Counted from the stretch's first letter, positions 3,250-48,515 are shown. The stretch: DNA of 64,000 nt from Candidatus Omnitrophota bacterium (GCA_015233675.1 JADFXH010000002.1:14794-78793), one strand, 5' to 3'. Notes: generated by a model not told the origin, from the sequence alone. A program made the numbers and translations.

Positions 3250-3443
3250 CGCGCGTGCATTGAGATGAACAGCTATTATGTATTCGGCACGGGAATATTT
3301 TCGCCGTCTGCTACGGTTTACAGCTTGGATGCTATCGCGATAAGGCATACGCGGCATCCAAGCTGTAAAACCTTGCAGACTTTTGGCGAAAAATTCCCAA
3401 ATGTGCCTCACACATAATAGCTGTTCATCTCAAACGCGTGCAT
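3250..3443. repeat. Long imperfect palindrome (about 85-90 nt arms), MITE-like or structured-RNA element
   Basis: The left arm (3250-3332) is near-complementary to the right arm (3354-3443). Perfect blocks are TTGAGATGAACAGCTATTATGT / ACATAATAGCTGTTCATCTCAA and GGTTTACAGCTTGGATGC / GCATCCAAGCTGTAAAACC. The apical loop contains the palindrome TATCGCGATA. Confidence 0.75.
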
Positions 3444-24902: not shown

Positions 24903-25301
24903 ATGCATGAAAATACGCTTAAAGTCCTTGTTGTTGATGATGAAGAAGGGATCCTTGATTTAACCCAAAGGATCCTTCGTCACAAATGCGGGTATGATAC
25001 CGTTGGCACGACGGATGGAGAAGAGGCGGTAAAGCTGTTTGTTGAACATAGTCCAGATATTTGTATACTTGATGTGCACCTTGATGACTCTGTGCTGAGC
25101 GGGATTGATGTTTTGCGTGAAGTAAGAAAGATAGCTCCAAATGCCCAATGCATCATGATCACCCGTATTACCGAGGAGCATACCATCAAACAATCCAAGG
25201 AATTAGGTGCTGCGGCGTATTTATTAAAACCATTGGATACGAAAGAATGGCTGGATGTGGTCAAAGAGCTGGCAGACGGTATTCTGAAAGGTAGGCCATA
25301 A
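24903..25301 (+). CDS. Single-domain response regulator
   Basis: VLVVDDEEG...ILDVHL...KP receiver pattern. Confidence 0.85.
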   Translation: MHENTLKVLVVDDEEGILDLTQRILRHKCGYDTVGTTDGEEAVKLFVEHSPDICILDVHLDDSVLSGIDVLREVRKIAPNAQCIMITRITEEHTIKQSKELGAAAYLLKPLDTKEWLDVVKELADGILKGRP

Positions 25302-25302
25302 A

Positions 25303-25806
25303 ATGGCCAAACCCCTGCCTAATGAAGATGCTCTTTATGAAAGAATCAGAGACGAAAAAATTACCATCCCGCCGTTCATTTGGGATGCCATGTATAACCT
25401 TCTAGGCGATTCAGTGTCATTTATTAATTTTCAAGTCAGCTATTATTTAGATCAGAATAAGCCGATCCCTGTTGAAGATTCCAGGAAAATTCTGGATTAT
25501 GTTATGCGCAGCGTGGAAATTGTACGCAAGATCATCTGTCCTGAAAGAATAACAGACAAAGATGCTTCTTTGCAAAAGGTCAAGAGGGAAGGGACTATCT
25601 TAAACCCTTTGATCAGGGAATTTTATACTCATTATTTAGGTAATGATTTACATATTATGGGTTTGTGTGTTCAATATTATTTGGACCCAGCGGGAGAGAG
25701 GCCAATACCGGTGGCAGATGCCCGTAAAATCCTTGATGCCACATTATCAATGCGTAAATTTTTAAACCGGCTCAGGCAAGCAACTTCGCCTTCCATTGCC
25801 TCATAG
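25303..25806 (+). CDS. Unknown protein with an internal tandem duplication (2 x about 75 aa)
   Basis: The two halves share the signature YYLD-x(3-5)-PIPVxDxRKILD. The gene is tightly packed between two receiver genes, 1 nt after the previous stop. Confidence 0.65.
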   Translation: MAKPLPNEDALYERIRDEKITIPPFIWDAMYNLLGDSVSFINFQVSYYLDQNKPIPVEDSRKILDYVMRSVEIVRKIICPERITDKDASLQKVKREGTILNPLIREFYTHYLGNDLHIMGLCVQYYLDPAGERPIPVADARKILDATLSMRKFLNRLRQATSPSIAS

Positions 25807-25817
25807 AAAGGCCTTAA

Positions 25818-26591
25818 ATGATAAAACTTTTGGCTGTAGATGATGAGCAGGGCATTTGCGAGATCATTGAAAAAACATTTTCATATATTGGTTTTTCTGT
25901 GTCCATAGCAACGAATGCAAAAAAAGCCATGCAGCTGTTTCAAAAAGAAAAACCTAAAATTGTTTTTCTGGATTTGATCATGCCGGACAAAGACGGCGAA
26001 GATTTACTTAAGGAGATGAAGGCAATTGACCCGGGTGTTATTGTTATTGTTGTCACTGCCAAGAAAGACGAAAAGGCCCGCGAGCAAGTCTTAAAACTTG
26101 GCGTCGATGAGTATATTACAAAACCTTTTAGCCGTAACTATCTTCGGGATGTGGTGGTTCAAAAGATACACGATGTCTTAGACAAGGGCGGTCACATGAA
26201 GCCTCCCAGGGTTCTTGTTGTTGATGATGAGGTTGAACTGAGAAAAAATATCAAAGAATATATTGTTCCCCGTTTTGAATGCTTAATAGATGAGGCACAA
26301 AATGCAATTGAAGCCCTGGGCAAAGTCCAGCAATTAAAACCTGATGTTATTTTGCTCGATGTAAAAATGCCGGGTTTAAGCGGTCTGGATGTGATTGAGC
26401 AAATGAGACAGGCTTCGCCTGCTTCAAGGATTATTGTTGTCAGCGCTTGGAGGAGTGCGGAGGTTGTCAATAAAGCGATCAGCTTGGGAGCTGTTGATTA
26501 TATTGATAAATCTGCCTCATTGGCAGTCATGGGTGAGAAGTTAAGGGCGGTTTTACTAAGCATAGGCAAGTTGATTATTAAAAATGTTTAG
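25818..26591 (+). CDS. Tandem-receiver (REC-REC) response regulator without output domain
   Basis: Two receiver modules: LLAVDDEQG...LDLIMPD, and VLVVDDEVE...LDVKMPG. Confidence 0.85.
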   Translation: MIKLLAVDDEQGICEIIEKTFSYIGFSVSIATNAKKAMQLFQKEKPKIVFLDLIMPDKDGEDLLKEMKAIDPGVIVIVVTAKKDEKAREQVLKLGVDEYITKPFSRNYLRDVVVQKIHDVLDKGGHMKPPRVLVVDDEVELRKNIKEYIVPRFECLIDEAQNAIEALGKVQQLKPDVILLDVKMPGLSGLDVIEQMRQASPASRIIVVSAWRSAEVVNKAISLGAVDYIDKSASLAVMGEKLRAVLLSIGKLIIKNV

Positions 26592-27141
26592 GGTTAGCGA
26601 TGACAATGCAAAGGCATGGCTTGCCGGAGGAGTTTTCAAAACAATGAGGTATAGAGCTTTCAAAAGAAATGCTATCGCGTTTATCCAATACAAATTTTTC
26701 ATTACCTAGATAGCAGGTCAGACGTCCGTTAATGACATAGATCCATTTTTCGTAATTTCCTATCAGGGGTGAATGTTCCCATACTGTTTTACCACCGACT
26801 TCCAGGAGCATTTCTAAGGCCAAAAAAGACCGGCTGGGTGAGCTGATCACATTGGCTTGTACCTTATCATTATAGGTATATTCATCTAACCGTTCATCCT
26901 TTCTAATTATCAGCCTGCCTTCTAATTCAGTGTCCTTGATCAGTTTTTCCAAAGGAATACCAATGGCGCAGCAAATTTTTAATATAGAAGAAAACTTGGC
27001 AATATCTCCTTCTTCAATCCTTTGGAGGGTCCTGTAGCTAAGAGCTTTCTTGCCAAACACGGCAACGCCACGGTCAAACACATTTTGCAAGCTTAATCCC
27101 AAATCCTGGCGTATAAATTTAATCTTTTCGTGTATTTTCAT
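26578..27141 (-). CDS. XRE-family HTH regulator with C-terminal cupin domain
   Basis: N-terminal HTH_3-like region (IRQDLGLSLQNV...SYRTLQRIEEG). C-terminal cupin barrel (WIYVINGRLTCYLG...PHCFEN). The 3' end overlaps the REC-REC gene by 14 nt. Confidence 0.8.
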   Translation of the reverse strand: MKIHEKIKFIRQDLGLSLQNVFDRGVAVFGKKALSYRTLQRIEEGDIAKFSSILKICCAIGIPLEKLIKDTELEGRLIIRKDERLDEYTYNDKVQANVISSPSRSFLALEMLLEVGGKTVWEHSPLIGNYEKWIYVINGRLTCYLGNEKFVLDKRDSISFESSIPHCFENSSGKPCLCIVIANPKHF

Positions 27142-27148
27142 CTCTTAA

Positions 27149-27177
27149 AGAATAGCGTAAATTAAGGTATTCGTCAA
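27149..27177 (-). promoter_or_regulatory. Candidate promoter of the XRE-cupin gene (leaderless-type)
   Basis: The minus strand reads TTGACG-N17-TATTCT, with the -10 element ending 7 nt before the ATG. No SD. Confidence 0.4.
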
Positions 27178-27210
27178 GACAAAATTTAACTATTTTAAGA
27201 TAGTTTTGTC
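27178..27210. promoter_or_regulatory. Inverted repeat GACAAAA...TTTTGTC abutting the XRE -35 (candidate operator); a third half-site lies at 27274-27280
   Basis: GACAAAATTTAACTATTTTAAGATAGTTTTGTC. TGACAAAA recurs at 27273-27280. Confidence 0.35.
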
Positions 27211-27294
27211 ATAATTATTTTAATATTTTATGGTAAATATCGTAATATTAATTATTGCAATATGTTACATTATGACAAAATATGATATGTTTGC

Positions 27295-27323
27295 TTGATT
27301 ATTGTCGTATTAGATGGTATATT
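27295..27323 (+). promoter_or_regulatory. Candidate promoter for the small-ORF pair
   Basis: TTGATT-N17-TATATT, preceded by TGG. It lies about 60 nt upstream of the SD AAAGGAGG. Confidence 0.4.
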
Positions 27324-27380
27324 TTCTAATATAGGGATATCAATGCATCTTTACATTACTAGAAAGGAGGAATAAGGCCT

Positions 27381-27554
27381 ATGTTAATAGAAATTATCCA
27401 AAGATTTGCTGAAACTAAGACAATTCTGGCTTTGCCTTTATTCTTAATGACCGCTTTTGGAATTACAGGGCATAAAATAAAGGAGAATGATCAAAATTTA
27501 TACAATATAGCACCAGGAGATAATTTTCCTTATGGAATAATGTCTAAAAACTAA
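27381..27554 (+). CDS. Small protein (57 aa) with one hydrophobic segment, unannotated in ORF track
   Basis: MLIEIIQRFAETKTILALPLFLMTAFGITGHKIKENDQNLYNIAPGDNFPYGIMSKN. The SD AAAGGAGG lies 9 nt upstream. Confidence 0.4.
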   Translation: MLIEIIQRFAETKTILALPLFLMTAFGITGHKIKENDQNLYNIAPGDNFPYGIMSKN

Positions 27555-27595
27555 AAAAGTCATTTGAACTGTTAAATATAAGGGAGGATTAACAA

Positions 27596-27823
27596 ATGAA
27601 AGTTCTATTGATACTTCACAGTGAGCAGGATCCGGGTGCTGGGCTAATTGTCGCCGTAAAAGAAAGGTCAACAAAGGACAGGGTGCTTGCTTTATTAGAA
27701 GAAAACAGAGAACGCGAGGCTTTTGATCTTTTGAAAAAGAAAGCAGTGCCGCAGATGTATCTTGCTCCGGGCCAAAAGCCAAGAGAAGCTATTGTAACTC
27801 TCATAGAGGACGACTTGCGTTAA
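27596..27823 (+). CDS. Small hypothetical protein (75 aa)
   Basis: The SD GGGAGG lies 8 nt upstream. I recognise no family. Confidence 0.5.
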   Translation: MKVLLILHSEQDPGAGLIVAVKERSTKDRVLALLEENREREAFDLLKKKAVPQMYLAPGQKPREAIVTLIEDDLR

Positions 27824-27902
27824 TTAAAGATTTTTTAAAGCAAGAATTTACAAATTTATCATTTCAAAAGGCTTTATTTTGTTGGTATACTAAAAAATTA
27901 TT

Positions 27903-28523
27903 ATGCCGCAATGTGAGAAATTAAAACTGCTCCTTGTAGAAGATGAGCCTGATACCTGTGAGACTTTTCAGTCTTATTTTGAAAAGAGAGGCTTTGTTGT
28001 TTTGACTACAGACAGCGGGCGAGAAGCCCTTTGTGTCATCAAATCATCCAAGCCGGACGTTGTCATGCTGGATATTACCTTGAGAGACGAAAATGGCGTC
28101 GATGTTTTAAAAAAATTGCGCGGTTATGACAAAGATACCAAGGTCATCATGGTTACCGGACAACAGTATTCGGATGAGGAAATTGAAAAGATTAAAAGTA
28201 TGGGATTAAGCGGCTATTATGAAAAGCCGGTCCTGCTTGGGGATGTTGCAAAAAGGATTTTTGAGGTTACCGGTTTAGAAGAACCACAGCCCTTGTTGTT
28301 TGAGAAAAAGGCAAAACGTAGAACATATTCATTTGAGGATGATTGCACCCATGATTTAAAAAATTTAGTGGGGATTATCAGTCAGAAATGTGAAAATTTT
28401 ACTTTGGGGATCAAAGATGGTATATACAAATCCCCAAAAGAGAGGGCGCAAAGATTTGCCGTGCTTATGGACGATATCCAGGAAACAGTCAAAAGAGGCA
28501 AGAAGTTTCTAAAGGAGATATGA
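27903..28523 (+). CDS. Response-regulator receiver fused to a DHp/H-box-like C-terminal segment (no ATPase domain)
   Basis: REC module (LLLVEDEPD...MLDITL...KP). C-terminal CTHDLKNLVGII resembles a HisKA H-box. Confidence 0.7.
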   Translation: MPQCEKLKLLLVEDEPDTCETFQSYFEKRGFVVLTTDSGREALCVIKSSKPDVVMLDITLRDENGVDVLKKLRGYDKDTKVIMVTGQQYSDEEIEKIKSMGLSGYYEKPVLLGDVAKRIFEVTGLEEPQPLLFEKKAKRRTYSFEDDCTHDLKNLVGIISQKCENFTLGIKDGIYKSPKERAQRFAVLMDDIQETVKRGKKFLKEI

Positions 28524-28553
28524 ATCCCCAAAACTTTTTTTCTACAAGTTAAA

Positions 28554-28580
28554 CAGGTTCTAACATCCTCTCGCCAGTGA
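28554..28580 (+). repeat. 27-nt direct repeat, left copy (partner at 35900-35926)
   Basis: CAGGTTCTAACATCCTCTCGCCAGTGA versus CAGATTCTAATATCCTCCCGCCAGTGG, 23/27 identical. Confidence 0.7.
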
Positions 28581-28589
28581 CACATAACA

Positions 28590-28801
28590 CTTGACATCCA
28601 CCTCCTTCATTTTATAATTAGATGCTTTATAAGGCGTTGTATATGAGCATAATACTTTGTAACTTTTAACAACGACGAGAAGAGCCTATTTTTAACAATG
28701 GCATGGCCAATCTTTTTGATTCGTCGTCTGGTGCCCCAAGGCCATGTTGCTGATGGTAAACTTAAGTGTTAGATCTCCTGTGGAAAAAATGTCTAAAGTG
28801 G
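28590..28801 (+). promoter_or_regulatory. Promoter-bearing conserved leader element, copy 1 (partner at 32099-32310)
   Basis: TTGACA(28591)-N16-TATAAT(28613), followed by about 185 nt that are highly similar to 32128-32310. The similarity ends in ATGTCTAAAGTGGC. Confidence 0.65.
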
Positions 28802-28865
28802 CTGGCGTGTTATCCACTATGAGATCGGTGACCCTATTTCGCTTCGCCCTCGGTGGCCAAGCAGG

Positions 28866-29331
28866 CAGGCTGTGATGCCATCTGTATCGTCAACGCTTCG
28901 ATATTGAGTTCTTTGCGTTCAAAAACACTGGATGCTGGTGCTGGTCGCATATAATGCCGTCACCCTTGTGTCCTGTACGCATTCTCAGAGCTTCCGACGT
29001 AATATTGATTACTTCCGTCGCAAGGTGCCATTAAAAAATTTACAGTTGCTGACTCGGGTTAGCGTTTAATTTTGCCAAACTCAAATTGGTTATTTAGAGC
29101 AACATGATATTCAGACGCGCAATCTTTTTGCCGGTAATCTATTGCGGCAGCCTTGCTTTGATGGCATGAAAGACGGTATTGATTATCGTGTTATAGGAAA
29201 CCTGAAGAATACGGAAAATATTATGCGTGATACATTCTGGATCGGGGGTTTATCCCGGCTTGTCTCAGAGAGCTTTGGAGTATATAGTTGATACTATACA
29301 TGTTTTCCTTAAAGAGGCTAACGCAAGTTAG
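28866..29331 (+). pseudogene. 5'-truncated, frameshifted remnant of an rfbH/ddhC-type 3-dehydrase
   Basis: 29083-29331 reads QIGYLEQHDIQTRNLFAGNLLRQPCFD...IMRDTFWIG(frameshift: extra G)VYPGLSQRALEYIV, paralogous to the C-terminus of the intact gene at 52573-53952. Upstream fragments (SFRRNIDYFRRKV) are interrupted by stops and deletions. Confidence 0.7.
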
Positions 29332-29345
29332 CAGGGGCGTCTGAA

Positions 29346-30227
29346 ATGAAAAAAGTAAAAGTTGGCATTATTGGAACAGGGAATATTGGCACGGATCTGT
29401 TGATCAAGGTGCAAAGGTCGGAGATCTTAGAATGCGGTCTTTTTGCCGGTAAGAATCCTGATTCAGTTGGGATCAGAAGAGCGGAGAAAATGGGCGTCCG
29501 CACTTCTTTTAATTCAATTAAGGAAATCCAGGATGACCCGGATTGCTGCGCGATCGTGTTTGACGCCACTTCCGCTCAAGTACATTCTTTTAATGCCCCT
29601 ATTCTGACAAAGCTGGGCAAATTTGTGGTTGATCTTACACCATCTTCCATTGGAAAAATGTGCGTTCCGGTCGTTAACCTTAAGGAATGTCTAAATTCCG
29701 TTAATGTTAATCTTATTACCTGCGGCGGGCAAGCCACAATTCCTATAGCCTATGCCTTGATAAAAGCGCATCCTGAAATTGGATATATAGAAGTTGTAGC
29801 CAGTATCGCTTCAAAATCAGCTGGTTCCGGGACCAGGGCGAACATTGATGAATATGTTCTGGCGACCAAGGAGGCTGTCAGGATTTTTACCGGAGTGGAT
29901 CAAGCCAAAGCAATTATTATATTAAATTCCGCGGAGCCACCTGTTTTTATGCGCAATACGGTTTACGCGAAGATCGAAAAGCCAAATCTGGAAAAAATTA
30001 CCGAACAAGTCTTGATCATGGCGCAAAAGATACAAAAATATGTTCCAGGGTACAAGATTGTTCTCGGGCCTGTTGTGGAAAATAACCGCGTTACGACCAT
30101 GGTTGAGGTGGCGGGGAGGGGGGATTTTCTTCCAAAATACTCCGGCAATCTGGACATTATTACCTGCGCGGCAGTAAATGTTGCCGAAGAGTTTGCCAAG
30201 AAGAAAATTCTTAGACTAAAGGATTAA
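29346..30227 (+). CDS. Acetaldehyde dehydrogenase (acetylating), DmpF/MhpF family
   Basis: GIIGTGNIGTDL Rossmann motif. Catalytic-Cys context ITCGGQATIP. About 290 aa. Confidence 0.85.
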   Translation: MKKVKVGIIGTGNIGTDLLIKVQRSEILECGLFAGKNPDSVGIRRAEKMGVRTSFNSIKEIQDDPDCCAIVFDATSAQVHSFNAPILTKLGKFVVDLTPSSIGKMCVPVVNLKECLNSVNVNLITCGGQATIPIAYALIKAHPEIGYIEVVASIASKSAGSGTRANIDEYVLATKEAVRIFTGVDQAKAIIILNSAEPPVFMRNTVYAKIEKPNLEKITEQVLIMAQKIQKYVPGYKIVLGPVVENNRVTTMVEVAGRGDFLPKYSGNLDIITCAAVNVAEEFAKKKILRLKD

Positions 30228-30232
30228 AATTT

Positions 30233-31264
30233 ATGACTAAAGATATCATTTTTTTTGATTCCACCTTACGGGACGGGTCTCACGCCATCGGCCATAAATT
30301 GACGGTGGACAATATCAGGAACTATTGCACAGGGATCGATGGTTCCGGATTGCACGTGGTCATAGTAGGACATGGCAATGGTTTGGGAGCATCTTCTTTG
30401 CAGATCGGGCTGTCAGCTTTACCAGATCAGGAGATGCTAACAACTGCCAGAAAAGCATTAAAGAAAACAAAGCTGGGCGCATTTTTGATCCCGGGTCTGG
30501 GAACCATAAAAGACAATCTTGCCCCAGCTATCGACCTGGGGGTCGATCTTGTGTGCGTGGCTTGCCACTGTACGGAGGCAGATGTTACCGGTCAGCATAT
30601 TGACTATGTTAGGAAAAGAGGGAAAGATGTTTATGGCGTATTAATGATGTGCCACATGGCAGCGAAAGAGAAATTATTAATGGAAGCCAAGAAAATGCAA
30701 AGCTATGGCGCGTTAGGGGTGATTTTGATGGATTCCGCAGGGGCTTTTGATCCGAACATGCTGGAAGAGACTGTAAGTTTTTTATCCAAAAAGCTGGATA
30801 TCCCGGTGGGATTTCACGGGCATAACAATTTGGGGTTAGCCGTTAGTAATTCCTTAACTGCCATAAGGTCTGGAGCCAAAATTATTGATGGAACGATCCG
30901 GGGCTTTGGGGCTGGGGCCGGCAATTGCCAACTCGAGGTCTTTATCGGGTTATTATCAAGAATGAAGATAGAAACAGGCGTTGATCTTTATAAGCTGATG
31001 GATGTAAGTGATGGGGTCGTGGCTAAAATTATGCACAAGGCCCAGGAAATAGATTCAGTATCTTTGACCAGCGGGATGGCAGGGGTTTTTTCCGGCTTTG
31101 CTCCCTATGTAAAAAAAGCTGCAGAACGTTTTTCTGTTGATCCGCGGGATATTTTCATTGCCTTAGGCAAAAGGAAGATAGTCGGGGGACAAGAAGATTT
31201 TATTATCGATGTGGCTTTAGAAATAGCTAATAAAAAAGCCAAAGACCAGAATTTGTCCTTTTAA
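30233..31264 (+). CDS. 4-hydroxy-2-oxovalerate aldolase, DmpG/MhpE family
   Basis: DSTLRDGSHA and FHGHNNLGLAVSN metal-binding motifs. Adjacent to its usual DmpF-type partner. Confidence 0.85.
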   Translation: MTKDIIFFDSTLRDGSHAIGHKLTVDNIRNYCTGIDGSGLHVVIVGHGNGLGASSLQIGLSALPDQEMLTTARKALKKTKLGAFLIPGLGTIKDNLAPAIDLGVDLVCVACHCTEADVTGQHIDYVRKRGKDVYGVLMMCHMAAKEKLLMEAKKMQSYGALGVILMDSAGAFDPNMLEETVSFLSKKLDIPVGFHGHNNLGLAVSNSLTAIRSGAKIIDGTIRGFGAGAGNCQLEVFIGLLSRMKIETGVDLYKLMDVSDGVVAKIMHKAQEIDSVSLTSGMAGVFSGFAPYVKKAAERFSVDPRDIFIALGKRKIVGGQEDFIIDVALEIANKKAKDQNLSF

Positions 31265-31282
31265 AATAGAGGGAGATCTTGA

Positions 31283-32035
31283 ATGTTAAAGGAATCATTA
31301 AAAAATGGGGGGGTTGCCTTAGGAACATGGTGTGATTTGCCCAGCCCCGCCGTTGTGAATGTATTGGCTAAGGCTAAACTGGATTTTGTCATTATTGATA
31401 TGGAACATGGCCCCATGGACTTCAAAATAGCCCAGGACATGCTCATGGCGGCTGAATGCGAAGGAACAGAGGCTCTGGTGCGCGTACCACGCTTGGATGA
31501 ATCAGATATATTGCGGTCTTTGGACCTGGGGGCGGCAGGCATCATTGTGCCACATATTGAAAGCGTAGAGGATAGAAAGAAGGTGGTCGCTTACAGTAAA
31601 TTCCCTCCGGTTGGCCAAAGAGGGTTTAATCCTTATGTGCGTGGCGGTGGATATCGCAAAGCAGACCGGGAATATTGTGTCATTCAGAATGAAAGAATAA
31701 TTGTAGGGTTGATCATAGAAGGAGTAGATGCTTTAGCCAATTTAGAACGTATCATTGATGATCCCAACGTTGATCTAATTTATATTGGAACGTATGATCT
31801 GTCATTAGCCTTAGGGATGCCTGGGGATGTAGGCCATCCTAAGGTCTTAAAAGCACTGGAAAAAGCGGCGGCTAATGTGATCAAAGCTAAAAAAAGTGTC
31901 GGCTGCATGATCCATCAAGCTTCGGATCTGGCAAGGTTCAAAGAGTTGGGTATTCAGTTCATAACGTATAAGATAGATAGCGCGATTATCTATGACTCGG
32001 TGGCAAGCATTAAAAGGGAGTTTGATCGGCTATGA
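31283..32035 (+). CDS. HpcH/HpaI-family class II (pyruvate-dependent) aldolase
   Basis: The 250-aa TIM-barrel pattern LDFVIIDMEHGP...VRVP...IIVPHIES...IGTYDLS is typical of HpaI/YfaU aldolases. Confidence 0.8.
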   Translation: MLKESLKNGGVALGTWCDLPSPAVVNVLAKAKLDFVIIDMEHGPMDFKIAQDMLMAAECEGTEALVRVPRLDESDILRSLDLGAAGIIVPHIESVEDRKKVVAYSKFPPVGQRGFNPYVRGGGYRKADREYCVIQNERIIVGLIIEGVDALANLERIIDDPNVDLIYIGTYDLSLALGMPGDVGHPKVLKALEKAAANVIKAKKSVGCMIHQASDLARFKELGIQFITYKIDSAIIYDSVASIKREFDRL

Positions 32036-32103
32036 AACTGTCCGATTACATGGTTAAATTCTTAGAGGACAGGGGCGTTAAAGATGTTTTTATGCTTTCT
32101 TGA
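32032..32103 (+). pseudogene. 23-codon stub of a ThDP-enzyme N-terminus (recombination scar)
   Basis: MKLSDYMVKFLEDRGVKDVFMLS-stop parallels MRLCDYIAQFLVKQGVKDIFMLTGYG of the intact gene at 32379. Its ATG overlaps the aldolase stop (ATGA). The stub is cut off exactly where leader copy 2 begins. Confidence 0.7.
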
Positions 32104-32310
32104 CATCTACCGCGTTTATTTTATAATCAAATGCATAATAAATTTTTGCATATAAATGTAATACTTTATAAATTTTAACAATGACGAGAAGCGTCTATTT
32201 TTAAGCATGGCATGACTAATCTTTTTGATTCGTCGTCTGGTGACCAAAGGCCTGTTGCCGATGGTAAACTTCAGTGGTAGATCTCCTGTGAAAAGAATGT
32301 CTAAAATGGC
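32099..32310 (+). promoter_or_regulatory. Promoter-bearing conserved leader element, copy 2
   Basis: TTGACA(32100)-N16-TATAAT(32122), followed by the conserved core ...TTTTAACAATGACGAGAAG...AATCTTTTTGATTCGTCGTCTGGTG...GATGGTAAACTT...TAGATCTCCTGTG...ATGTCTAAAATGGC. Confidence 0.65.
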
Positions 32311-32392
32311 CCAACATTTGTTGGGCCAGCTCATGTTTAAGCTCCTGGTGCATGCCCGTCATATAGAAAGAGGGGCGGATGAGACTGTGTGA
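32297..32392 (+). CDS. Candidate 31-codon upstream ORF overlapping the ThDP-enzyme start
   Basis: MSKMAQHLLGQLMFKLLVHARHIERGADETV. Its first codons are conserved in copy 1 (28788). Its stop (32390-32392) lies 11 nt inside the downstream gene. A GGCCCAAC/GTTGGGCC hairpin at 32308-32327 lies within it. Confidence 0.25.
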   Translation: MSKMAQHLLGQLMFKLLVHARHIERGADETV

Positions 32393-34070
32393 TTACATTG
32401 CTCAATTTTTGGTCAAGCAAGGTGTAAAAGACATTTTTATGCTTACTGGCTACGGCGCTATGTATATGAACGATGCCATCCAGCAGTCAGGTATTAAGTA
32501 TTATGCCACTCGTAATGAAGCAACTGCGCCGATGATGGCCGAAGCCTATGCCCGCGTGCGCCAGTCCTTAGGTGCTGTGTGTGTTACTGCTGGACCGGGC
32601 GCAACCAATGCCATACCAGGGTTAGCGGAAGCTTTCGTAGACTCTGCCCCCATTTTAGTGCTCTCTGGTCAAGTTGAATCCAGGTATACCACTCACAAAA
32701 TAGGAATCCCTGGCTTGAGAACCTTTGGTTCCCCGGAAATCAATATTGTCCCTATTGTACAAAGCCTAACTAAATTTGCTGCAGTGGTTGAAGAGCCTTC
32801 GCAGATCCGTTATTTGTTGGAAAAGGCCGTCTATTATGCACTTTCCGGCCGTCCAGGGCCGGTGTGGCTGGATGTGCCTTTAGACATGCAACAGATGGAA
32901 ATTGATCCTTCCAGCCTTAAAGGATTTGTTCCGACCGCTGAATCCAATATTGGGGACATAGATAAATCTGTTAAGCAAGCATTTGAAATGCTATCCAGTG
33001 CAAAAAAGCCGTTGATCATCGCTGGTCATGGCATTCGGCAAGCCTGTTTGGCCAGCCAACTGCGTAGTTTGGTAGAGACCTTGAAGGTTCCGGTTATTTT
33101 TTCGCGGTTTGGTCAGGACCTGATGCCGCATTCGCACCCCTTTGTATTTGGACACGGAGGGGGCAAAGGTTCGCGTTACTGCAAAGCTATCATGAACCAG
33201 GCTGATGTAGTAGTATCTTTAGGTTGCCGGCTCGCCCCGCAATTTACTGGCCATGATTTTGAGGCCTTTGCCAAGGATGTCAAGATCATCATGGTCGATA
33301 TTGATCCAGCGGAACTGGAGAAACCGGGGATTCCACTGGCCCTAAAAATCCGCGCGCACCTGCGTCCATTCATGGATGCTTTGTTGAACGAGGTAAAATT
33401 ACAGCCTTCCGGAAATTGGGAAAGCTGGGTCAATACTTGCAGGGAATTTAAACAAAAAAATCCAATGGTCACGGTGGCATCTAAGCGTAATCCTATTGAC
33501 CTGTATTACTTCATGTACCGGTTAGGAGAACTTTCCGGGAAAAACCATGTCCTTGTTACAGATGCAGGTTCTAATTATTATGTTGGCGGACAGGTATGGA
33601 ATTTCGAAAGCGGCCAGCGCGAGATCATGTCAGGGACCAATGCAGCCATGGGGACTTCAATTCCTTTGGCCATTGGGGCGGCTGTGGCTGCGCCGGATTC
33701 CCAAATACTGGCTGTCACCGGGGATGGCTCCCTAGAACTTAACATCCAGGAACTTAAGACCATATCGCATTATAAATTAAATTTGAAGCTTTTCGTCATC
33801 AATAACGGCGGCTATGCGTCCATGCGTAAATGGCAGGACACTTATTTTGACGGACGGCGTATTGATACTGAGGAATCAACTGGTGCGGGGACGCTCAATC
33901 TCAAGCAGGTGGCCAAAGCATTTGATCTAGAGCATGTTTGCATTGAGCGCTATGAAGACATTGATGTCCAACTAAAAAAGATCATGTCGGATGATCGTCC
34001 ACTGTTCGTGGAAGTCATGACTGACAATAACCAAAAAATATTTGAAGCCTTTAAGGACAAAGATGGTTAA
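32379..34070 (+). CDS. Thiamine-diphosphate enzyme of the acetolactate synthase / YerE-like family
   Basis: Three-domain ALS-type layout. ThDP motif VTGDGSLELNIQEL...FVINNGGYASM. Confidence 0.85.
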   Translation: MRLCDYIAQFLVKQGVKDIFMLTGYGAMYMNDAIQQSGIKYYATRNEATAPMMAEAYARVRQSLGAVCVTAGPGATNAIPGLAEAFVDSAPILVLSGQVESRYTTHKIGIPGLRTFGSPEINIVPIVQSLTKFAAVVEEPSQIRYLLEKAVYYALSGRPGPVWLDVPLDMQQMEIDPSSLKGFVPTAESNIGDIDKSVKQAFEMLSSAKKPLIIAGHGIRQACLASQLRSLVETLKVPVIFSRFGQDLMPHSHPFVFGHGGGKGSRYCKAIMNQADVVVSLGCRLAPQFTGHDFEAFAKDVKIIMVDIDPAELEKPGIPLALKIRAHLRPFMDALLNEVKLQPSGNWESWVNTCREFKQKNPMVTVASKRNPIDLYYFMYRLGELSGKNHVLVTDAGSNYYVGGQVWNFESGQREIMSGTNAAMGTSIPLAIGAAVAAPDSQILAVTGDGSLELNIQELKTISHYKLNLKLFVINNGGYASMRKWQDTYFDGRRIDTEESTGAGTLNLKQVAKAFDLEHVCIERYEDIDVQLKKIMSDDRPLFVEVMTDNNQKIFEAFKDKDG

Positions 34071-34097
34071 ACGAGCAGGAAAGGAAATTGTTGATCA

Positions 34098-34919
34098 ATG
34101 AAGAATGAAATGATTATGGATGAGAGATCACGTTATCTTCGCAAACTTATTTTACAGGGATGGGAAGGGGCAAGGAAAGGACATATTGGCTCGGTGTTGT
34201 CCCTGGTAGAGATTCTTAGGGTCCTTTATGACGATATTATGAATTATCGCCCTCAAGAACCCTTATGGCCGGATAGGGATAGGTTTATTCTAAGCAAAGC
34301 CCACGGCTGCTTGGCATTATATGCTATCTTGGCGGACAAGGGTTTTATTGGAATAGATGAATTGAAAACATATTCTTTGGATGGCTCAAGATTGGTAGCA
34401 GCTTGTGAGTATAATACCGTGCCTGGCGTAGAGGTAACAACAGGCGCATTAGGGCATGGGCTTCCTATAGGGGTAGGGATGGCGCTTGCCGCCCGCATAC
34501 AAAAAAGGCCAAGCCGCGTTTATGTAGTAATGGGCGATGGGGAATTAAATGAAGGGTCGGTATGGGAAGCGGCATTGTATTCAGCACACCATAAATTATC
34601 GAATCTTACAGCCATCATTGATTATAATAAATTGCAGATTGCCGGGCCCAATGAAGAAATTATAGGCCTTGAACCATTAAAAGAAAAATGGGCCAGTTTC
34701 GGTTTTGCTGTTGAGGAAATCGACGGCCATGACGTTGATACCTTAAAGAAAACTTTAAAAAGATTGCCATTCTCCAAAGGGAAACCGTCGGTTGTTATAT
34801 GTCATACCATCAAAGGAAAAGGGATTGACTTTGTAGAAAATGATTATAAATGGCATTGGAAAAATAGTTTAGACGACGAAACGGTTTCAAGAATGAAGTC
34901 TTTATTGGAGGAAGAATAA
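34098..34919 (+). CDS. Transketolase, N-terminal (ThDP-binding) subunit
   Basis: GHIGSVLSLVEIL, DRFILSKAHG, and GDGELNEGSVWEA...IIDYN motif. Confidence 0.85.
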   Translation: MKNEMIMDERSRYLRKLILQGWEGARKGHIGSVLSLVEILRVLYDDIMNYRPQEPLWPDRDRFILSKAHGCLALYAILADKGFIGIDELKTYSLDGSRLVAACEYNTVPGVEVTTGALGHGLPIGVGMALAARIQKRPSRVYVVMGDGELNEGSVWEAALYSAHHKLSNLTAIIDYNKLQIAGPNEEIIGLEPLKEKWASFGFAVEEIDGHDVDTLKKTLKRLPFSKGKPSVVICHTIKGKGIDFVENDYKWHWKNSLDDETVSRMKSLLEEE

Positions 34920-35851
34920 TGCTTAACGCATTTAAAGATGCCATCTATGAAGCTGCAAAAAACGATAAGCGGATCATCCTCATGGTTACTGATAACGATA
35001 TCGGATTAAGCCATATGCAAGCTGAGATGCCCGATCAATATTTTGTCGAAGGTATTTCAGAGGCAAACACTATGGGGGTCGCCTCAGGCCTCGCTGCCGA
35101 TGGATTCATGCCTTTTATTATCAATATCGCCAGCTTTTTGGTCAGACGGAGCTATGAACAAATAGTCCTGGATGTTTGTTTGCAAAACAGGCCTGTAAGA
35201 TTGATAGGTATAGGGGGAGGATTCTCAATGGCACATTTGGGGACTACACATACCACCATTGAAGATATTGCTATCATGCGGGCTGTTCCTGAAATGACCG
35301 TTATTGCCCCCTGTGATGCCCTCGAAATGAAGAAACTAGTGCCTTCCATATTAAAATGGCCGAAACCTATTTATATAAGGCTTGCCAGGTACGGTAAACC
35401 CGTCGTCACTAAGGAAGAAAGCGATATTGATATTGGCAAAGCAGTAGTGCTCCGTCAGGCCTCTGCAGGCCATAAAAGCGTGCTTTTGATTTCCACAGGT
35501 GCCATGACTTCCCGTACAATTAAGACAGCTGAGGAGCTTCAAAATCTTGGAATTGAATCAACGGTCCTGCATCTTCATACGATAAAACCTTTGGATGAAA
35601 AGGCCATTATTGAACAGGCACGCCGAGTTCCCCTAGTCGTTACCATAGAGGATCATTCGATTATAGGCGGGTTAGGCAGCGCCTGTATGGGAGTCCTTAT
35701 GAATAATATGCATCCGGATCTTCCCCGGCTGCATTGCATAGGAGTGCCGGATAAATTTATTCATGTATATGGGACCCAAGAGTCTTTATTAAAAAGCGTA
35801 GGACTTGAGCCGTCACAAATGGCAAAGACAATCTACCAGCTCACTAAGTAA
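34919..35851 (+). CDS. Transketolase, C-terminal (pyrimidine-binding) subunit
   Basis: FVEGISEANTMGVASGLA and HTIKPLDEKAI motifs. Its start overlaps the N-subunit stop (TAATG). Confidence 0.85.
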   Translation: MLNAFKDAIYEAAKNDKRIILMVTDNDIGLSHMQAEMPDQYFVEGISEANTMGVASGLAADGFMPFIINIASFLVRRSYEQIVLDVCLQNRPVRLIGIGGGFSMAHLGTTHTTIEDIAIMRAVPEMTVIAPCDALEMKKLVPSILKWPKPIYIRLARYGKPVVTKEESDIDIGKAVVLRQASAGHKSVLLISTGAMTSRTIKTAEELQNLGIESTVLHLHTIKPLDEKAIIEQARRVPLVVTIEDHSIIGGLGSACMGVLMNNMHPDLPRLHCIGVPDKFIHVYGTQESLLKSVGLEPSQMAKTIYQLTK

Positions 35852-35899: not shown

Positions 35900-35926
35900 C
35901 AGATTCTAATATCCTCCCGCCAGTGG
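35900..35926 (+). repeat. 27-nt direct repeat, right copy, followed by a degenerate copy of the leader promoter
   Basis: See 28554-28580. The downstream GTTACAT...TTTATACT (35940-35968) parallels TTGACAT...TTTATAAT of copy 1. Confidence 0.6.
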
Positions 35927-36026
35927 CCCCATATGTAACAGTTACATTAAGTAATCTTAGTTTATACTGGAGATTTTTGGGAAGATCTATTAAATTGCAG
36001 TATACGCGTTTGCTTCAGTATTTGTA

Positions 36027-36054
36027 TTGACATTGTTTTTGTATTTTATATAAT
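36027..36054 (+). promoter_or_regulatory. Candidate promoter of the winged-helix regulator / downstream glycan operon
   Basis: TTGACA-N16-TATAAT, the same 16-nt spacer as the leader promoters. Confidence 0.5.
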
Positions 36055-36072
36055 GTTCATTAATTGAACATT
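36052..36072. promoter_or_regulatory. Inverted repeat AATGTTCA-N5-TGAACATT overlapping the -10/+1 region (candidate operator)
   Basis: Perfect 8-bp arms between the -10 hexamer and ATG 36076 of the regulator gene. Confidence 0.45.
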
Positions 36073-36075
36073 CCT

Positions 36076-36648
36076 ATGAATGCCTCTAAAGACCCCCTTA
36101 ATGAACGCGATTTTGAATTGATCAATATTGTCGGTGGTCAATTAGCCTCTAACCAGCGCGACCTTTCCCGTTATATGAACCTTTCTTTAGGAATGACCAA
36201 TATGCTTTTAAAGCGTTTGGTTACTAAAGGTTATATCCGTATTAAACAGCTTGACCGTCGAAAAGTTGAATATTTCCTGACTCCAAAAGGATTTGCTGAA
36301 AAGATGCGCAAGTCTGTCAAATACACGCTAAAAACCATTAGTTCCATAGGTTTAATTAAAAAACAACTTTTAGATATTCTTGGAAATCTTTATGCAAAAG
36401 GCCATAGGAAATTTTATGTTTTGGGAGATTCGGATTTCGCTCAATTGGTGGAGAGCGCTTTAATACAGTCTCAATGGGGAGGGGTTGAAGTTGGCCGGGT
36501 TAAATCTTTATCGGAAAATCCTGATGGTTTGGTGCTTATTTGCAGGGAAGATGAAAACAGCCCGGAATTAAGCGGGGAGCGTTATGTGGATTTGATTAAA
36601 GAGTTAGCTAGCCGGGAGAATAACGAATTTGAAGCGGTAGAAAGGTAA
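36076..36648 (+). CDS. Winged-helix (MarR-like) transcriptional regulator with an uncharacterised C-terminal domain
   Basis: QRDLSRYMNLSLGMTNMLLKRLVTKGYIRIKQLDRRKVEYFLTPKG is a wHTH pattern. I prefer ATG 36076 to the TTG at 36064. Confidence 0.65.
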   Translation: MNASKDPLNERDFELINIVGGQLASNQRDLSRYMNLSLGMTNMLLKRLVTKGYIRIKQLDRRKVEYFLTPKGFAEKMRKSVKYTLKTISSIGLIKKQLLDILGNLYAKGHRKFYVLGDSDFAQLVESALIQSQWGGVEVGRVKSLSENPDGLVLICREDENSPELSGERYVDLIKELASRENNEFEAVER

Positions 36649-45893: not shown

Positions 45894-46624
45894 GCTTTGA
45901 GCAGGCAGTAATTTTTGCGGGGGGGCGCGGTGAACGGCTGAGGCCGTTGACGGATATGATCCCCAAACCAATGGCACCGGTAAATGGACGGCCGTTTGTG
46001 GACTATCTATTAAGGATGCTTCGAGATGCAGGTATTAGGCGTGTTGTTTTTTTGCTGGGATACAAGGCCGAAAGCGTGATTGATCATTACAGGAAACAGA
46101 GCATACCTGGTCTTGAGATTGACTATTCAATTGGCAAGGAAGAAGATCAGACAGGGCGCCGGTTGATCAATGCATATGAAAAATTGGAAGATAAATTTTT
46201 GCTTTTGTACGGAGATAATTATTGGCCGGCGCCGCTGGAGAAGATGAAAAAGAATTTTGAGCATTTACAGGTTCCTTTGATGACGACAGTCTTTAGTAAT
46301 AAAAAAGGGACCGGAGAGTATGGTTTTGGGAACAATGTGATGGTTGATCCAAGCGGCAGGGTGAAGGCCTATGATAAAAGCCGCCGGCTGTCAGGGCTCA
46401 ATGGAGTGGACATTGGTTTTTTTTTGATCGATAAGAACATTATTGATCCCAATGAAAACGGGAACATCTCTTTTGAGGAAGTTATTTTAGCAAAGATCGC
46501 ATCTGAAGGAAAATTGGGGGCTTTTCTAACAGATGAGCAGTATTATTATATTACCTCGTTTGACAATCTGCAGAGGTTCGAACAGATTATCAGGCAGAAA
46601 GTGATCCCGGGAAGGATTGAATGA
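45890..46624 (+). CDS. Sugar-1-phosphate nucleotidyltransferase (HddC/GmhD-like)
   Basis: AVIFAGGRGERLRPLTDMIPKPMAPV signature. Overlaps the upstream stop by 4 nt. Confidence 0.75.
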   Translation: MSFEQAVIFAGGRGERLRPLTDMIPKPMAPVNGRPFVDYLLRMLRDAGIRRVVFLLGYKAESVIDHYRKQSIPGLEIDYSIGKEEDQTGRRLINAYEKLEDKFLLLYGDNYWPAPLEKMKKNFEHLQVPLMTTVFSNKKGTGEYGFGNNVMVDPSGRVKAYDKSRRLSGLNGVDIGFFLIDKNIIDPNENGNISFEEVILAKIASEGKLGAFLTDEQYYYITSFDNLQRFEQIIRQKVIPGRIE

Positions 46625-47550
46625 TGGAACATCAGGATAAGATTAAGATTGCACAAGAAGTGTTAAGGCTCAGGCTTAGCCAGATATTGGTCAATGACAG
46701 GTATAAAAAGGGTGATTTCAAGGTGCCTATTCATCTGGCCCTGGGACATGAAGCGATCGCCGTGGCGGTGAGTGCTATTATGGAGGGGAAAGACCAGCTG
46801 GTTTTGACCCACCGGAATATTCATTACAATTTGGCTAGGGCAGGCTCGTTAAAAGGCGAGTTAGATGAATATTATCTAAAGCCGCAAGGGCTGGCTCGCG
46901 GGCTGCTGGGTTCGATGAATTTGGATAATGATAACCGCGGGGTGGTTTATTCTTCCAGCATTTTAGGTAATAATTTACCGGTGGCGGCCGGCCTGAGTTT
47001 GGGTAATAAGGTCAAATCCCAGGAAAGCATCGTCATAGTAGTCACCGGTGACGGGGCCATTGAAGAAGGAAGTTTTTATGAAAGTTTGGTTTTTCTAAAG
47101 AGCAATGGATTATCAGAGCTCATCATTATCGAAAACAATCAATGGTCATTGGCTACGCGCATTGAGGAGAGACGATGCCCCATTGATCTTGCCAAATTCG
47201 CAGATTCTTTAGGGGTCCGTTATGAAATTTTTAGTTCTAATAATCCTTTTGAATATATTTCAAAATTAGCGGATTACCGTCAATGGTCTTTGAGCAATAA
47301 AGCTCCTGTTTGTGTTGAAGTGCAGCTGACCACCTTAGGCCATTGGAGAATGAAGACCGATGGATATCCTGAGGGAAAGTTTATTAATTATCACGCCGGC
47401 CCGGCACCAGACGTGGATAGCCAAAAGGATTATATCTTTACGTCGACAAAAGAGGACGTTGTCTTCGTGCTCCGGGAGCATTTCAAAAAGGAAGAGATCG
47501 AGGCCATGGCGGATCGTATATTATCCCAGTTACAAAAGGAAATAGCATGA
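46621..47550 (+). CDS. ThDP-dependent 2-oxoacid dehydrogenase E1 alpha-like subunit
   Basis: HLALGHEAIAV and ThDP motif TGDGAIEEGSFYES...IIENNQWS. Confidence 0.8.
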   Translation: MMEHQDKIKIAQEVLRLRLSQILVNDRYKKGDFKVPIHLALGHEAIAVAVSAIMEGKDQLVLTHRNIHYNLARAGSLKGELDEYYLKPQGLARGLLGSMNLDNDNRGVVYSSSILGNNLPVAAGLSLGNKVKSQESIVIVVTGDGAIEEGSFYESLVFLKSNGLSELIIIENNQWSLATRIEERRCPIDLAKFADSLGVRYEIFSSNNPFEYISKLADYRQWSLSNKAPVCVEVQLTTLGHWRMKTDGYPEGKFINYHAGPAPDVDSQKDYIFTSTKEDVVFVLREHFKKEEIEAMADRILSQLQKEIA

Positions 47551-48515
47551 AATACGTAGAATACATTAATAAGCTCATTAAAGACGAGGTTCTCAGGGCC
47601 GATCGTATGGTCATATTCGGACAAAATATCAATGCCGGTTCATGCCTCTCGGGATTGACCAAGAACCTTAAAGTTAAAAAAGGCAATTTGATCATCAATA
47701 CCCCTAATTGCGAGAATTCCCTGGTAGGTATCGGCTTCGGGGCTATGATGAACGGGGTATCCGCTGCCTTTATGATGAAGCAGCAAGATTTCCTTTTGCT
47801 AGGCATCGACCAATTGGTCAATACGTATAATATCATCCGTCAAAGATCCGCGGGAGAAGGGTCATTTACCATCATGACCATTATCGTAGACAATGGTTAT
47901 GAGGGCCCCCAGTCACGATTAAATCATTTTGGTGATTTTTGTTCGATCGCGGGTATTCAGGGCTTTACCATCACCAATACGGCGGATGCGAAAGAGATCA
48001 TCTCCTCACAGTTCAATGCGCCGGGATTTCGTATCATCGGCATCAGCCAGCGTTTGTTTAAACAAGAGATCATGGAGATGAATGTCCTGAGCGTGAGCCC
48101 TGACCGTTCGGTATTTCAATATGCCCAGGGCAAACAGGCGACCATTATATGTTTCAATCTATCCTTACCTTATGGGGTGGTAATGGCCGGCCGTCTTAAA
48201 GAAAAAGGATTATCAGCATCGTTATTCTCGGTGAATAGTCCGGTCCCTGTTAACTGGGATGAGCTGGTCCATGATATAAACAAAACAGGGACATTGATTC
48301 TGATCGATGACCTTAAAAGCAGGAATTTGGCCAGCGATAATCTTTTAGTCAAGGTCCTGGGACATTGTACGTTGAAGCAAAAGTTCATTATCCGTAGAAG
48401 GCCTGAGGAAAATGTGTTTAGTCCTCACCATGATCAGATGGTCATTGACTATGACCATATCGTTGGGCAATTGGCAACGGAATGGCAGGGGGGCTTAAAG
48501 TCCGCTGAGATCTAA
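47547..48515 (+). CDS. E1 beta-like (transketolase pyrimidine-binding) subunit
   Basis: VIFGQNI...NTPNCENSLVGIGFGAMMNG pattern. Translationally coupled to the alpha subunit (ATGA overlap). Confidence 0.75.
   Translation: MKYVEYINKLIKDEVLRADRMVIFGQNINAGSCLSGLTKNLKVKKGNLIINTPNCENSLVGIGFGAMMNGVSAAFMMKQQDFLLLGIDQLVNTYNIIRQRSAGEGSFTIMTIIVDNGYEGPQSRLNHFGDFCSIAGIQGFTITNTADAKEIISSQFNAPGFRIIGISQRLFKQEIMEMNVLSVSPDRSVFQYAQGKQATIICFNLSLPYGVVMAGRLKEKGLSASLFSVNSPVPVNWDELVHDINKTGTLILIDDLKSRNLASDNLLVKVLGHCTLKQKFIIRRRPEENVFSPHHDQMVIDYDHIVGQLATEWQGGLKSAEI

Follow-up and report, generated by a model that had tools for sequence, protein, structure and literature searches.

A promoter-leader repeat in an Omnitrophota glycan gene island as the probable overlap of two truncated operon heads

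INTRODUCTION

In a 64,000-nt stretch of a Candidatus Omnitrophota genome (GCA_015233675.1, JADFXH010000002.1:14794-78793; hereafter, the window), a consensus promoter and the leader presumed to be transcribed from it occur twice, in copies with sharp ends, near the start of a long array of sugar genes. The locus raises the question of what a bounded, conserved repeat of this kind represents: a regulatory RNA, a small gene, a mobile unit, a recognition region for a regulator, or the heads of two operons. A reading made from the sequence alone had put it forward as a candidate cis-regulatory RNA of unassigned type. Here, we describe the repeat and its borders, weigh these explanations, and compare the locus with known systems.

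RESULTS

Two promoter-leader copies in a glycan gene island

The two copies form a direct repeat (Table 1) in which 178 of 213 aligned columns are the same (83.6%); the 35 differences include one 1-nt indel. A 25-mer and a 31-mer from the cores of the repeat each occur exactly twice in the window and are absent from shuffled sequences, which bears out the earlier description of a promoter-plus-leader segment of ~210 bp present twice. On both sides, the flanks of the two copies are unrelated and the similarity ends abruptly.

The differences between the copies are clustered (permutation P = 0.014). Only 4 of the 29 positions in the -35 to -10 region differ, all of them in the spacer, leaving both hexamers intact. 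Mismatches affect 13 of 32 positions in the early transcribed stretch (28619-28650) compared to 18 of 152 in the block that follows (28651-28802). This downstream block of 152 nt is 88% identical between the copies.

Each copy opens with TTGACA-N16-TATAAT, a 12/12 match that agrees with the sequence-only reading. In the 64 kb, this perfect form occurs three times compared to 0.06 expected; all three sites are on the + strand at 28.6-36.1 kb, within the first 8 kb of the island described below. The consensus is of the Escherichia coli type, and its activity in Omnitrophota is assumed; on this assumption, both copies would be active promoters, with transcription starting near 28625 and 32134. 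Copy 2 had been said to drive the thiamine diphosphate (ThDP) enzyme and transketolase genes directly. It does lie 68 nt upstream of those genes, but the driving itself, like the assignment of genes to either promoter, is what we infer from this arrangement.

Upstream of copy 1, we found a 26-nt motif, referred to as motif M, that recurs past the transketolase stop and has only these two occurrences in the window. The two motif copies match at 23 of 26 positions, with a local alignment score of 37 compared to a shuffle mean of 19.3 (SD 2.6; z ~6.8). On the 3' side of motif M copy B, there is a degenerate promoter, GTTACA-16-TATACT, at 35941-35968, followed by the third perfect promoter. This third locus (35926-36063) was considered as a further copy of the element and rejected, since the similarity is limited to the 26-nt motif and nothing significant was detected beyond it.

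The window opens with housekeeping genes (lptE, murJ, ychF, prfA-like, secA, lnt, gap, and metF), after which come a histidine kinase and a number of response regulators. Sugar-nucleotide and glycan genes then form an unbroken array on the + strand that starts at 29346 and runs past the window's end (64000), and the element stands at the heads of this co-directional array of roughly 35 kb. The 563-aa ThDP enzyme encoded after copy 2 is 100% identical to NCBI MBF0570589.1, which is encoded on a 274-kb contig of a Candidatus Omnitrophica metagenome-assembled genome. Copy 1 had been described as preceding only a decayed rfbH remnant. The remnant is indeed present, but intact dmpF, dmpG, and hpcH follow it. 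A syntenic contig from a distant relative (L020) carries the same response-regulator block with a cupin gene, and its last regulator has 50% protein identity to that in the window; past this last regulator gene, both the island and the element are missing from L020, which places copy 1 at the left border of a variable island. No tRNA, tmRNA, or tandem repeats were found at the island edge.

Table 1. Features of the locus. Positions are counted from the first nucleotide of the window.
Feature	Position	Strand	Remarks
Motif M copy A, 26 nt	28554-28579	+	CAGGTTCTAACATCCTCTCGCCAGTG; ends 11 nt before the copy 1 -35
Copy 1 promoter-leader	28590-28802	+	-35 28591-28596; -10 28613-28618
Copy 1 variable early transcribed stretch	28619-28650	+	
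Copy 1 conserved block	28651-28802	+	
Terminator-like hairpin, then TTTAATTTTG	29047-29064	+	Consensus scan only; between copy 1 and dmpF
RfbH-like gene 3' remnant	29085-29316	+	Frameshifted; residues ~383-455
Collinear block, conserved operon of relatives	29339-32096	+	dmpF-dmpG-hpcH and first ~22 ThDP codons
dmpF	29346-30227	+	Domain assignment
dmpG	30233-31264	+	Domain assignment
hpcH	31283-32035	+	Domain assignment
T', truncated 5' end of native 601-aa-type ThDP gene	32032-32103	+	23 codons and junction-made stop
Copy 2 promoter-leader	32099-32310	+	-35 32100-32105; -10 32122-32127; left edge is a breakpoint within T'
9-bp hairpin, 6 G-C pairs	32307-32328	+	TGGCCCAAC-ATTT-GTTGGGCCA; poor T tract
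563-aa ThDP enzyme	32379-34070	+	Pfam
Split transketolase	34098-34919 and 34919-35851	+	Pfam
Motif M copy B, 26 nt	35900-35925	+	49 nt past transketolase stop
Third perfect TTGACA-N16-TATAAT	36027-36054	+	Precedes MarR-EPS-like wHTH ORF 36064-36648

The left border of copy 2 lies inside a truncated gene

HpcH aldolase homologs, ~80% identical to the neighboring protein, were placed on seven contigs. In all seven, a ThDP gene comes after hpcH, the stop of which it overlaps with its start by 4 nt; its product, wherever complete, has 601 aa. The dmpF-dmpG pair is found upstream of hpcH wherever the contig extends enough, e.g., in L021, L022, and L023, and further upstream these three contigs carry NTP-transferase, epimerase, and MBL genes. 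Two of the contigs, L024 and L025, were used for gene order only. In blastn comparisons with the block 29339-32096, identity over ~2.76 kb was 76% for L021 and L022 and 74% for L023, and the DNA homology with the relatives stops at 32096.

In the window, too, a ThDP start overlaps the hpcH stop by 4 nt (ATGA), but this reading frame, T', ends after 23 codons. Its peptide, MKLSDYMVKFLEDRGVKDVFMLS, encoded by 32032-32100, matches the N terminus of the L022 ThDP enzyme at 21 of 23 residues, and its DNA is a 71% repeat of 32379-32447, i.e., of codons 1-23 in the ThDP gene downstream of copy 2. Downstream of the junction, there is no remainder of the native gene; the leader comes instead, and then a different ThDP paralogue (563 aa) and the split transketolase. 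The end of homology at 32096, together with the T' match, identifies the left edge of copy 2 as a junction inside a truncated native gene. Since the downstream gene restarts at codon 1 of another paralogue, the event at copy 2 was a replacement or fusion and not a simple insertion.

The right border of copy 1 is a second breakpoint

On its right side, copy 1 is followed by about 280 nt (28803-29084) in which no significant similarity was detected, and then by the C-terminal ~75 codons of an rfbH-like gene. The latter were recognized by tblastn with the intact RfbH encoded at 52573-53952, as two pieces in frames +2 and +3 (E = 9e-12). That the remnant might reach back as far as copy 1 was considered and rejected, as the signal was not significant. 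Collinearity with the operon of the relatives begins at 29339, and at the place occupied here by the remnant, the relatives carry the MBL-fold gene. With 28803-29084 lacking assignable homology, the right junction of copy 1 is less precisely documented than the left junction of copy 2. The same interval contains a terminator-like hairpin, which, judging by its match to the terminator consensus, may attenuate or stop transcripts from promoter 1 before dmpF; the number of terminator-like sites in this region equals the shuffle expectation.

Each sharp border of the repeat is thus a rearrangement breakpoint in one copy only. This is our main new result, and it was missed in the sequence-only reading. 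A single breakpoint on either side, at the left edge of copy 2 and at the right edge of copy 1, suffices to explain the sharp ends, with no need for site-specific ends; the "element" is then probably the overlap of truncated heads. An alternative outlined earlier, the simple recent duplication of a promoter region in the event that no additional copies were found, stands in part: no extra copies were found in the window or in the searches described below, and a promoter region is what was duplicated, but the 16% divergence between the copies shows that the duplication was not recent. A comparable degree of decay of the rfbH remnant likewise disfavors a recent event.

The borders also bear on the possibility that the repeat is a non-autonomous mobile promoter cassette, MITE-like or moved site-specifically, that was inserted twice with its promoter reading outward. 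The sharp ends coincide in both copies, truncated genes adjoin both, and the left end of copy 2 interrupts a gene at only 1-3 nt before the -35 hexamer. This spacing is tighter than is usual for a random deletion endpoint and would still be compatible with a discrete unit that is mobile or was joined site-specifically. The sharp ends are, however, accounted for by the two breakpoints, and a simple insertion into the native gene should have left its codon 24 onward after copy 2, where codon 1 of a different ThDP paralogue is found. The termini have inverted repeats matching at only 6 of 8 positions (TTGACAT / ATGTCTAA), and a repeat search returned no inverted pair at the ends. There is no target-site duplication either: the flanks ACATAACA/TGGCGTGT and ATGCTTT/CCAACAT share nothing. 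Moreover, the 64 kb contain two copies only, and no plasmid, phage, viral, genome, or metagenome matches were obtained. A MITE or other non-autonomous transposon was rejected for want of an inverted pair, a target-site duplication, and more than two copies, and we consider a mobile cassette in general distinctly unlikely.

The repeat carries no coding signal

All + frames of the repeat contain stops. Substitutions in the alignment of the copies have no 3-nt periodicity when inspected by eye, and the indel is 1 nt long. A + strand leader peptide beginning M(A/T)NLFDSSSG was considered and rejected: it lacks a ribosome-binding site, and the indel alters its C terminus.

On the minus strand, the frames had been reported as not conserved between the copies. 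This holds insofar as the frame is broken in copy 1 and shows no constraint, but a 72-aa ORF (32116-32334), running from ATG to stop, does span copy 2. It could be the relic or a live copy of a small protein gene, as it covers all of copy 2 and the copy 1 frame is open save for the 1-nt indel that shifts it. Against this, the minus-strand translations have ~67% amino acid identity by hand count, as expected under neutrality for copies with 84% DNA identity. The ORF had no Pfam match at E<=1, and a HMMER search over 1.84 billion representative proteins returned three tandem-repeat artefacts only. An apparent resemblance of the peptide to an inverted fragment of RfbH (residues 278-340) was also rejected, since the Smith-Waterman scores fall inside the shuffle distribution. 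A minus-strand gene is therefore extremely improbable. The earlier description of the segment as a promoter followed by a transcribed, non-coding leader agrees with the perfect promoters and the lack of a coding signal.

The leader carries no signal of a conserved fold

The repeat is likewise without a structure signal. Rfam gave no matches for the whole window at gathering thresholds, and for the region 28400-32500 at E<=10 with lax filters it gave nothing over either copy, in line with the earlier failure to match the element to known riboswitches. When the copies were folded singly, copy 1 was less stable than its shuffles (z = +1.23) and copy 2 more stable (z = -1.56). The RNAalifold consensus of the two copies over 177 nt had an energy of -20.6 kcal/mol compared to -20.3 +/- 3.6 kcal/mol for 300 column shuffles (z = -0.06), and for the 152-nt block the corresponding z was +0.45; these values rest on two sequences, and covariation statistics need more.

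The stem noted earlier, CGACGA (28673-78) with TCGTCG (28721-26), is present as described, including the C-to-U change in copy 2. Its bases have two rival pairings, however, one in a hairpin nearby (AUGRCYAAUC-UUUUU-GAUUCGUCGU) and the other in a long-range helix involving UCUCCUGU, and the programs pick different pairings of the stem bases for copy 1 and copy 2. RNAalifold reported one two-sided change, C-G to U-A at columns 48/158, which is in an isolated terminal pair, and four one-sided compatible changes.

Farther downstream, the copy 2 leader continues with a G+C-rich hairpin (32307-32328), an SD-like AGAGGGG, and the ThDP start. The hairpin starts within copy 2, of which it takes up the last 4 nt, and otherwise belongs to a 3' leader specific to copy 2; it appears in both the minimum free energy and the centroid folds of the full copy 2 leader, which is more stable than its shuffles (z = -2.68). 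Most of this stability comes from the hairpin, which is outside the shared part, and from a helix with copy-2-only sequence. We found no intrinsic terminator inside the shared leader, and the hairpin at 32307-32328, being almost wholly outside it, has no counterpart after copy 1. A transcription attenuator was rejected on this ground. More generally, the two copies do not share any terminator or SD-masking helix.

The proposal that the element is a structured cis-regulatory RNA, with the sugar genes downstream under the control of a riboswitch or of a leader fold that binds a protein, did not withstand these comparisons. A long leader behind a strong promoter, the CGACGA/TCGTCG stem retained through a G-U pair, the compatible changes, and the stability of the full copy 2 leader are what could be expected of such an RNA. 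They are outweighed by the empty Rfam results, a consensus energy equal to that of the column-shuffled controls, the poor fold of copy 1, the location of the extra stability of copy 2 largely outside the shared part, the competing pairings of the same bases, the lack of a shared terminator or SD-sequestering helix, and the absence of the element from loci of relatives that have the same gene sets. We regard a structured RNA as very improbable.

Searches for further copies and homologs

A profile made from the two copies (nhmmer) was run over the rest of the window and revealed no further copy. When the search was extended to L016, L017, and L020-L023, the loci with the closest available homologs of the neighboring genes, the best match was a 60-nt intragenic fragment with E = 0.027. 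An exact-word scan with a 19-mer over 596 Gb of species-representative genomes gave 15 chance matches, mostly to a signal-peptide coding region of Fibrobacter, and a shifted 19-mer gave two chance matches in JGI metagenomes. Three viral scans and a blastn search of plasmids and phages in distant mode gave none. The homologs from which the sequence-only reading had hoped to build an alignment were thus not obtained from any of the genome, metagenome, viral, plasmid, phage, or related-locus searches. As the lineage is thinly sampled, this absence is weak evidence; the next-best homologs of the ThDP enzyme, the response regulator, and HpcH are 68, 50, and 80% identical, respectively.

DISCUSSION

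Taken together, the breakpoints indicate that the 212-nt repeat is probably the overlap of two truncated copies of an operon head, which provide strong promoters for two consecutive transcription units. The full head would have consisted of the 26-nt motif, a consensus sigma-70-type promoter, and a 5' leader of ~240 nt ending in the hairpin and a ribosome-binding site. Copy 1 would have kept the upstream motif and lost its 3' part at the join to ~280 nt of sequence without assignable homology and the rfbH-like 3' end. Copy 2 would have kept the hairpin, the SD-like AGAGGGG, and the ThDP start, and would have lost everything upstream of the -35 hexamer at the join to codon 23 of the native ThDP gene. 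In the present arrangement, promoter 1 probably reads through ~540 nt of junk to drive dmpF-dmpG-hpcH, possibly with attenuation at 29047-29064, while promoter 2 probably drives the ThDP and transketolase genes and possibly more. The shared leader would give both mRNAs a common first ~175 nt.

Two origins of such an arrangement are possibilities. Neighboring operons may have had similar heads that were later fused by deletions. Alternatively, a segment comprising the head and its ThDP gene may have been imported, with recombination anchored in the downstream homology; such imports are known to occur by homology-facilitated illegitimate recombination.

Whether the leader does anything beyond connecting promoter and gene is a separate question. 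If it has a role, a linear protein-recognition signal or a DNA-level signal acting after initiation is more likely than a folded ligand sensor, and from the sequence a post-initiation regulatory role is possible. One form of this idea centers on the conserved 152-nt block: the block would serve a regulator that acts after initiation and is common to the glycan operons as its site of loading or recognition, with this regulator being either a specialized NusG paralogue (processive antitermination of the ops/JUMPstart-like kind) or an RNA-binding protein that reads a linear motif. The position of the element in 5' leaders at the heads of a ~35-kb co-directional sugar array fits this reading, as do the better conservation of the block compared to the early transcribed stretch and the lack of a structure signal, which suits a linear or DNA-level signal. 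Two repeats of the GGTA(A/G) type are also present in the block (GATGGTAAAC ... AGTGGTAGATC in copy 2), and the known targets of RfaH sit in the untranslated leaders of such operons (PMC6391919). On the other hand, copy 1 has a T in place of the G of GGTAG (AGTGTTAG), the ops core GGCGGTAG has no match in the 64 kb (the nearest sequences within the element are AGTGGTAG in copy 2 and the one just given in copy 1), and no NusG or KOW protein was found among the scanned window ORFs, the search for a NusG paralogue covering ORFs of at least 150 aa. In addition, the block is missing at the third promoter locus, and relatives with the same genes lack it. On balance, a recognition region of this kind is rather unlikely.

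A broader version of the same idea, which we hold to be unlikely, unites motif M, the promoter, and the 152-nt block into an undescribed operon-head module of the Omnitrophota lineage that is reused at several glycan operons and whose leader is read by a dedicated post-initiation factor. Such a factor, a NusG paralogue or an RNA- or DNA-binding protein, would let RNA polymerase cross a stretch of sugar genes tens of kilobases long. If true, a solution like ops/JUMPstart would have arisen independently in a candidate phylum. A leader that recruits an elongation factor would also offer a first handle on transcription control in Omnitrophota, a prospect that the present data do not support.

This locus is a well-documented case of how a promoter is reused while a cell-surface glycan island evolves as a mosaic, here in an uncultured phylum: a truncated gene has been joined to a head that bears a promoter, and seven related contigs still display the ancestral order of the genes. 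It also carries a caution for riboswitch scans, as a bounded, conserved non-coding repeat can be the intersection of differently truncated copies.

Several known systems invite comparison. With riboswitches and other Rfam leaders, the repeat shares its position in the 5' leader and its length, but it differs in having no Rfam match, conserved-fold signal, or shared expression platform and, here, no phylogenetic spread. For a leader shared by polysaccharide operons, the nearest functional analogy may be JUMPstart/ops/RfaH, although we offer this as a conjecture. RfaH acts at targets in the untranslated leaders of polysaccharide operons (PMC6391919). Here, too, both copies are in untranslated leaders behind promoters, at the head of a long glycan array. 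The element differs in lacking the 8-nt ops core and any sequence similarity, the window has no RfaH-like gene, and Omnitrophota is a phylum far from Enterobacteria; membership in the JUMPstart/ops family was rejected because the core is absent.

The leaders recognized by UpxY in Bacteroides and LoaP in Bacillus are locus-specific 5' UTRs without which long operons for polysaccharides or secondary metabolites are not transcribed to their full length. Like the element, these targets are 5' UTRs at the heads of long operons. Unlike them, the element is not adjoined by a gene for a cognate factor, and no conserved hairpin of the LoaP-target type was found in it.

The closest parallel in kind is with putative mobile promoters, defined as non-coding upstream DNA of >50 nt that precedes non-homologous genes in one genome with at least 80% identity (PMC3488235). 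In the survey of Matus-Garcia et al. (2012), which covered only the 150 nt before the start codon, two-member families were the commonest (PMC3488235). With 213 aligned columns at 83.6% identity, the repeat exceeds both the length and the identity limits of that definition. The genes that flank its two copies are non-homologous, as they belong to different Pfam families, and self-BLAST of the window around the copies detected only one other similarity, between T' and the ThDP gene, which are in non-corresponding flanks. The match in position is less clear. Counted from the ThDP start at 32379, copy 2 occupies -280 to -69; counted from dmpF at 29346, copy 1 occupies -756 to -544, i.e., it is 544-756 nt upstream of the next intact gene. 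Two further differences are that the junctions here trace to gene-truncating rearrangements and that the repeat includes ~175 nt of transcribed leader. Judged by its sequence, the repeat is in kind an instance of promoter propagation, or of putative mobile promoters, to which it conforms in identity and flanks and, perhaps, partly in position.

Putative transcription signals

A 26-nt motif occurs at two sites (see the table below), 31 nt after the stop codon of the preceding gene at the first and 49 nt at the second, with −35-like hexamers lying 11 to 15 nt downstream of it in both cases. No obvious dyad symmetry was found in CAGRTTCTAAYATCCTCYCGCCAGTG. A regulator could bind this motif, which would then mark the heads of operons. 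Only ~10 nt separate the end of a third perfect TTGACA-N16-TATAAT promoter from a MarR-EPS-like wHTH reading frame, and the mRNA of this frame would thus have a very short leader or be leaderless. The terminator-like hairpin located between dmpF and copy 1 of the promoter-leader repeat might limit read-through from promoter 1, which opens that copy.

The imperfect hairpin or palindrome near murJ consists of 31-nt outer arms with 90% complementarity (3260-3290 and 3403-3433) and 27-nt inner arms with 89% (3306-3332 and 3354-3380); it could represent either a structured RNA or an element resembling a MITE.

Features in the window and their coordinates
Feature	Position	Remarks
Long imperfect hairpin or palindrome	3260-3433	Between murJ and uvrC-like gene
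26-nt motif CAGRTTCTAAYATCCTCYCGCCAGTG	28554-28579; 35900-35925	23/26 identical between sites
Terminator-like hairpin, then TTTAATTTTG	29047-29064	Within junk separating copy 1 from dmpF
ThDP and split transketolase set	32379-35851	In island
Third perfect promoter	36027-36054	
MarR-EPS-like wHTH ORF	36064-36648	TIGR04176, below cutoff
E1-type pair (thiamine-diphosphate enzyme set)	46621-48515	In island
Apparent transketolase remnant	~54868-55507	694-nt gap from epimerase gene to glycosyltransferase gene; by eye only

Thiamine-diphosphate enzyme sets

When read by eye only, the gap between the epimerase and glycosyltransferase genes yields a transketolase-like sequence (GHIGASFSVVEIL... near its start). 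It reads like a decayed, internally deleted transketolase gene, another pseudogene remnant of the glycan island. The presence of several thiamine-diphosphate enzyme sets in the island, this remnant among them, suggests repeated acquisition of side-chain-building modules.

Comparison with related loci

The region at 24903-28523 was compared to L020, a Logan SRR22388340 contig from a distant relative. Both contain, in the same order, a response regulator, a small ORF, a double-REC regulator, a cupin gene on the minus strand, and a response regulator. Since L020 continues beyond the last response regulator with unrelated genes (YfhO-like and HemN-like), we place the glycan island's left edge directly after 28523.

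Comparison with related contigs L021, L022, and L023 revealed that the dmpF-dmpG-hpcH segment (29339-32096), flanked by breakpoints at both ends, is a 2.76-kb piece of a larger operon. In other Omnitrophota, this operon is conserved as NTP-transferase, epimerase, MBL, dmpF, dmpG, hpcH, the 601-amino acid ThDP gene (ThDP-601), epimerase, and DegT.
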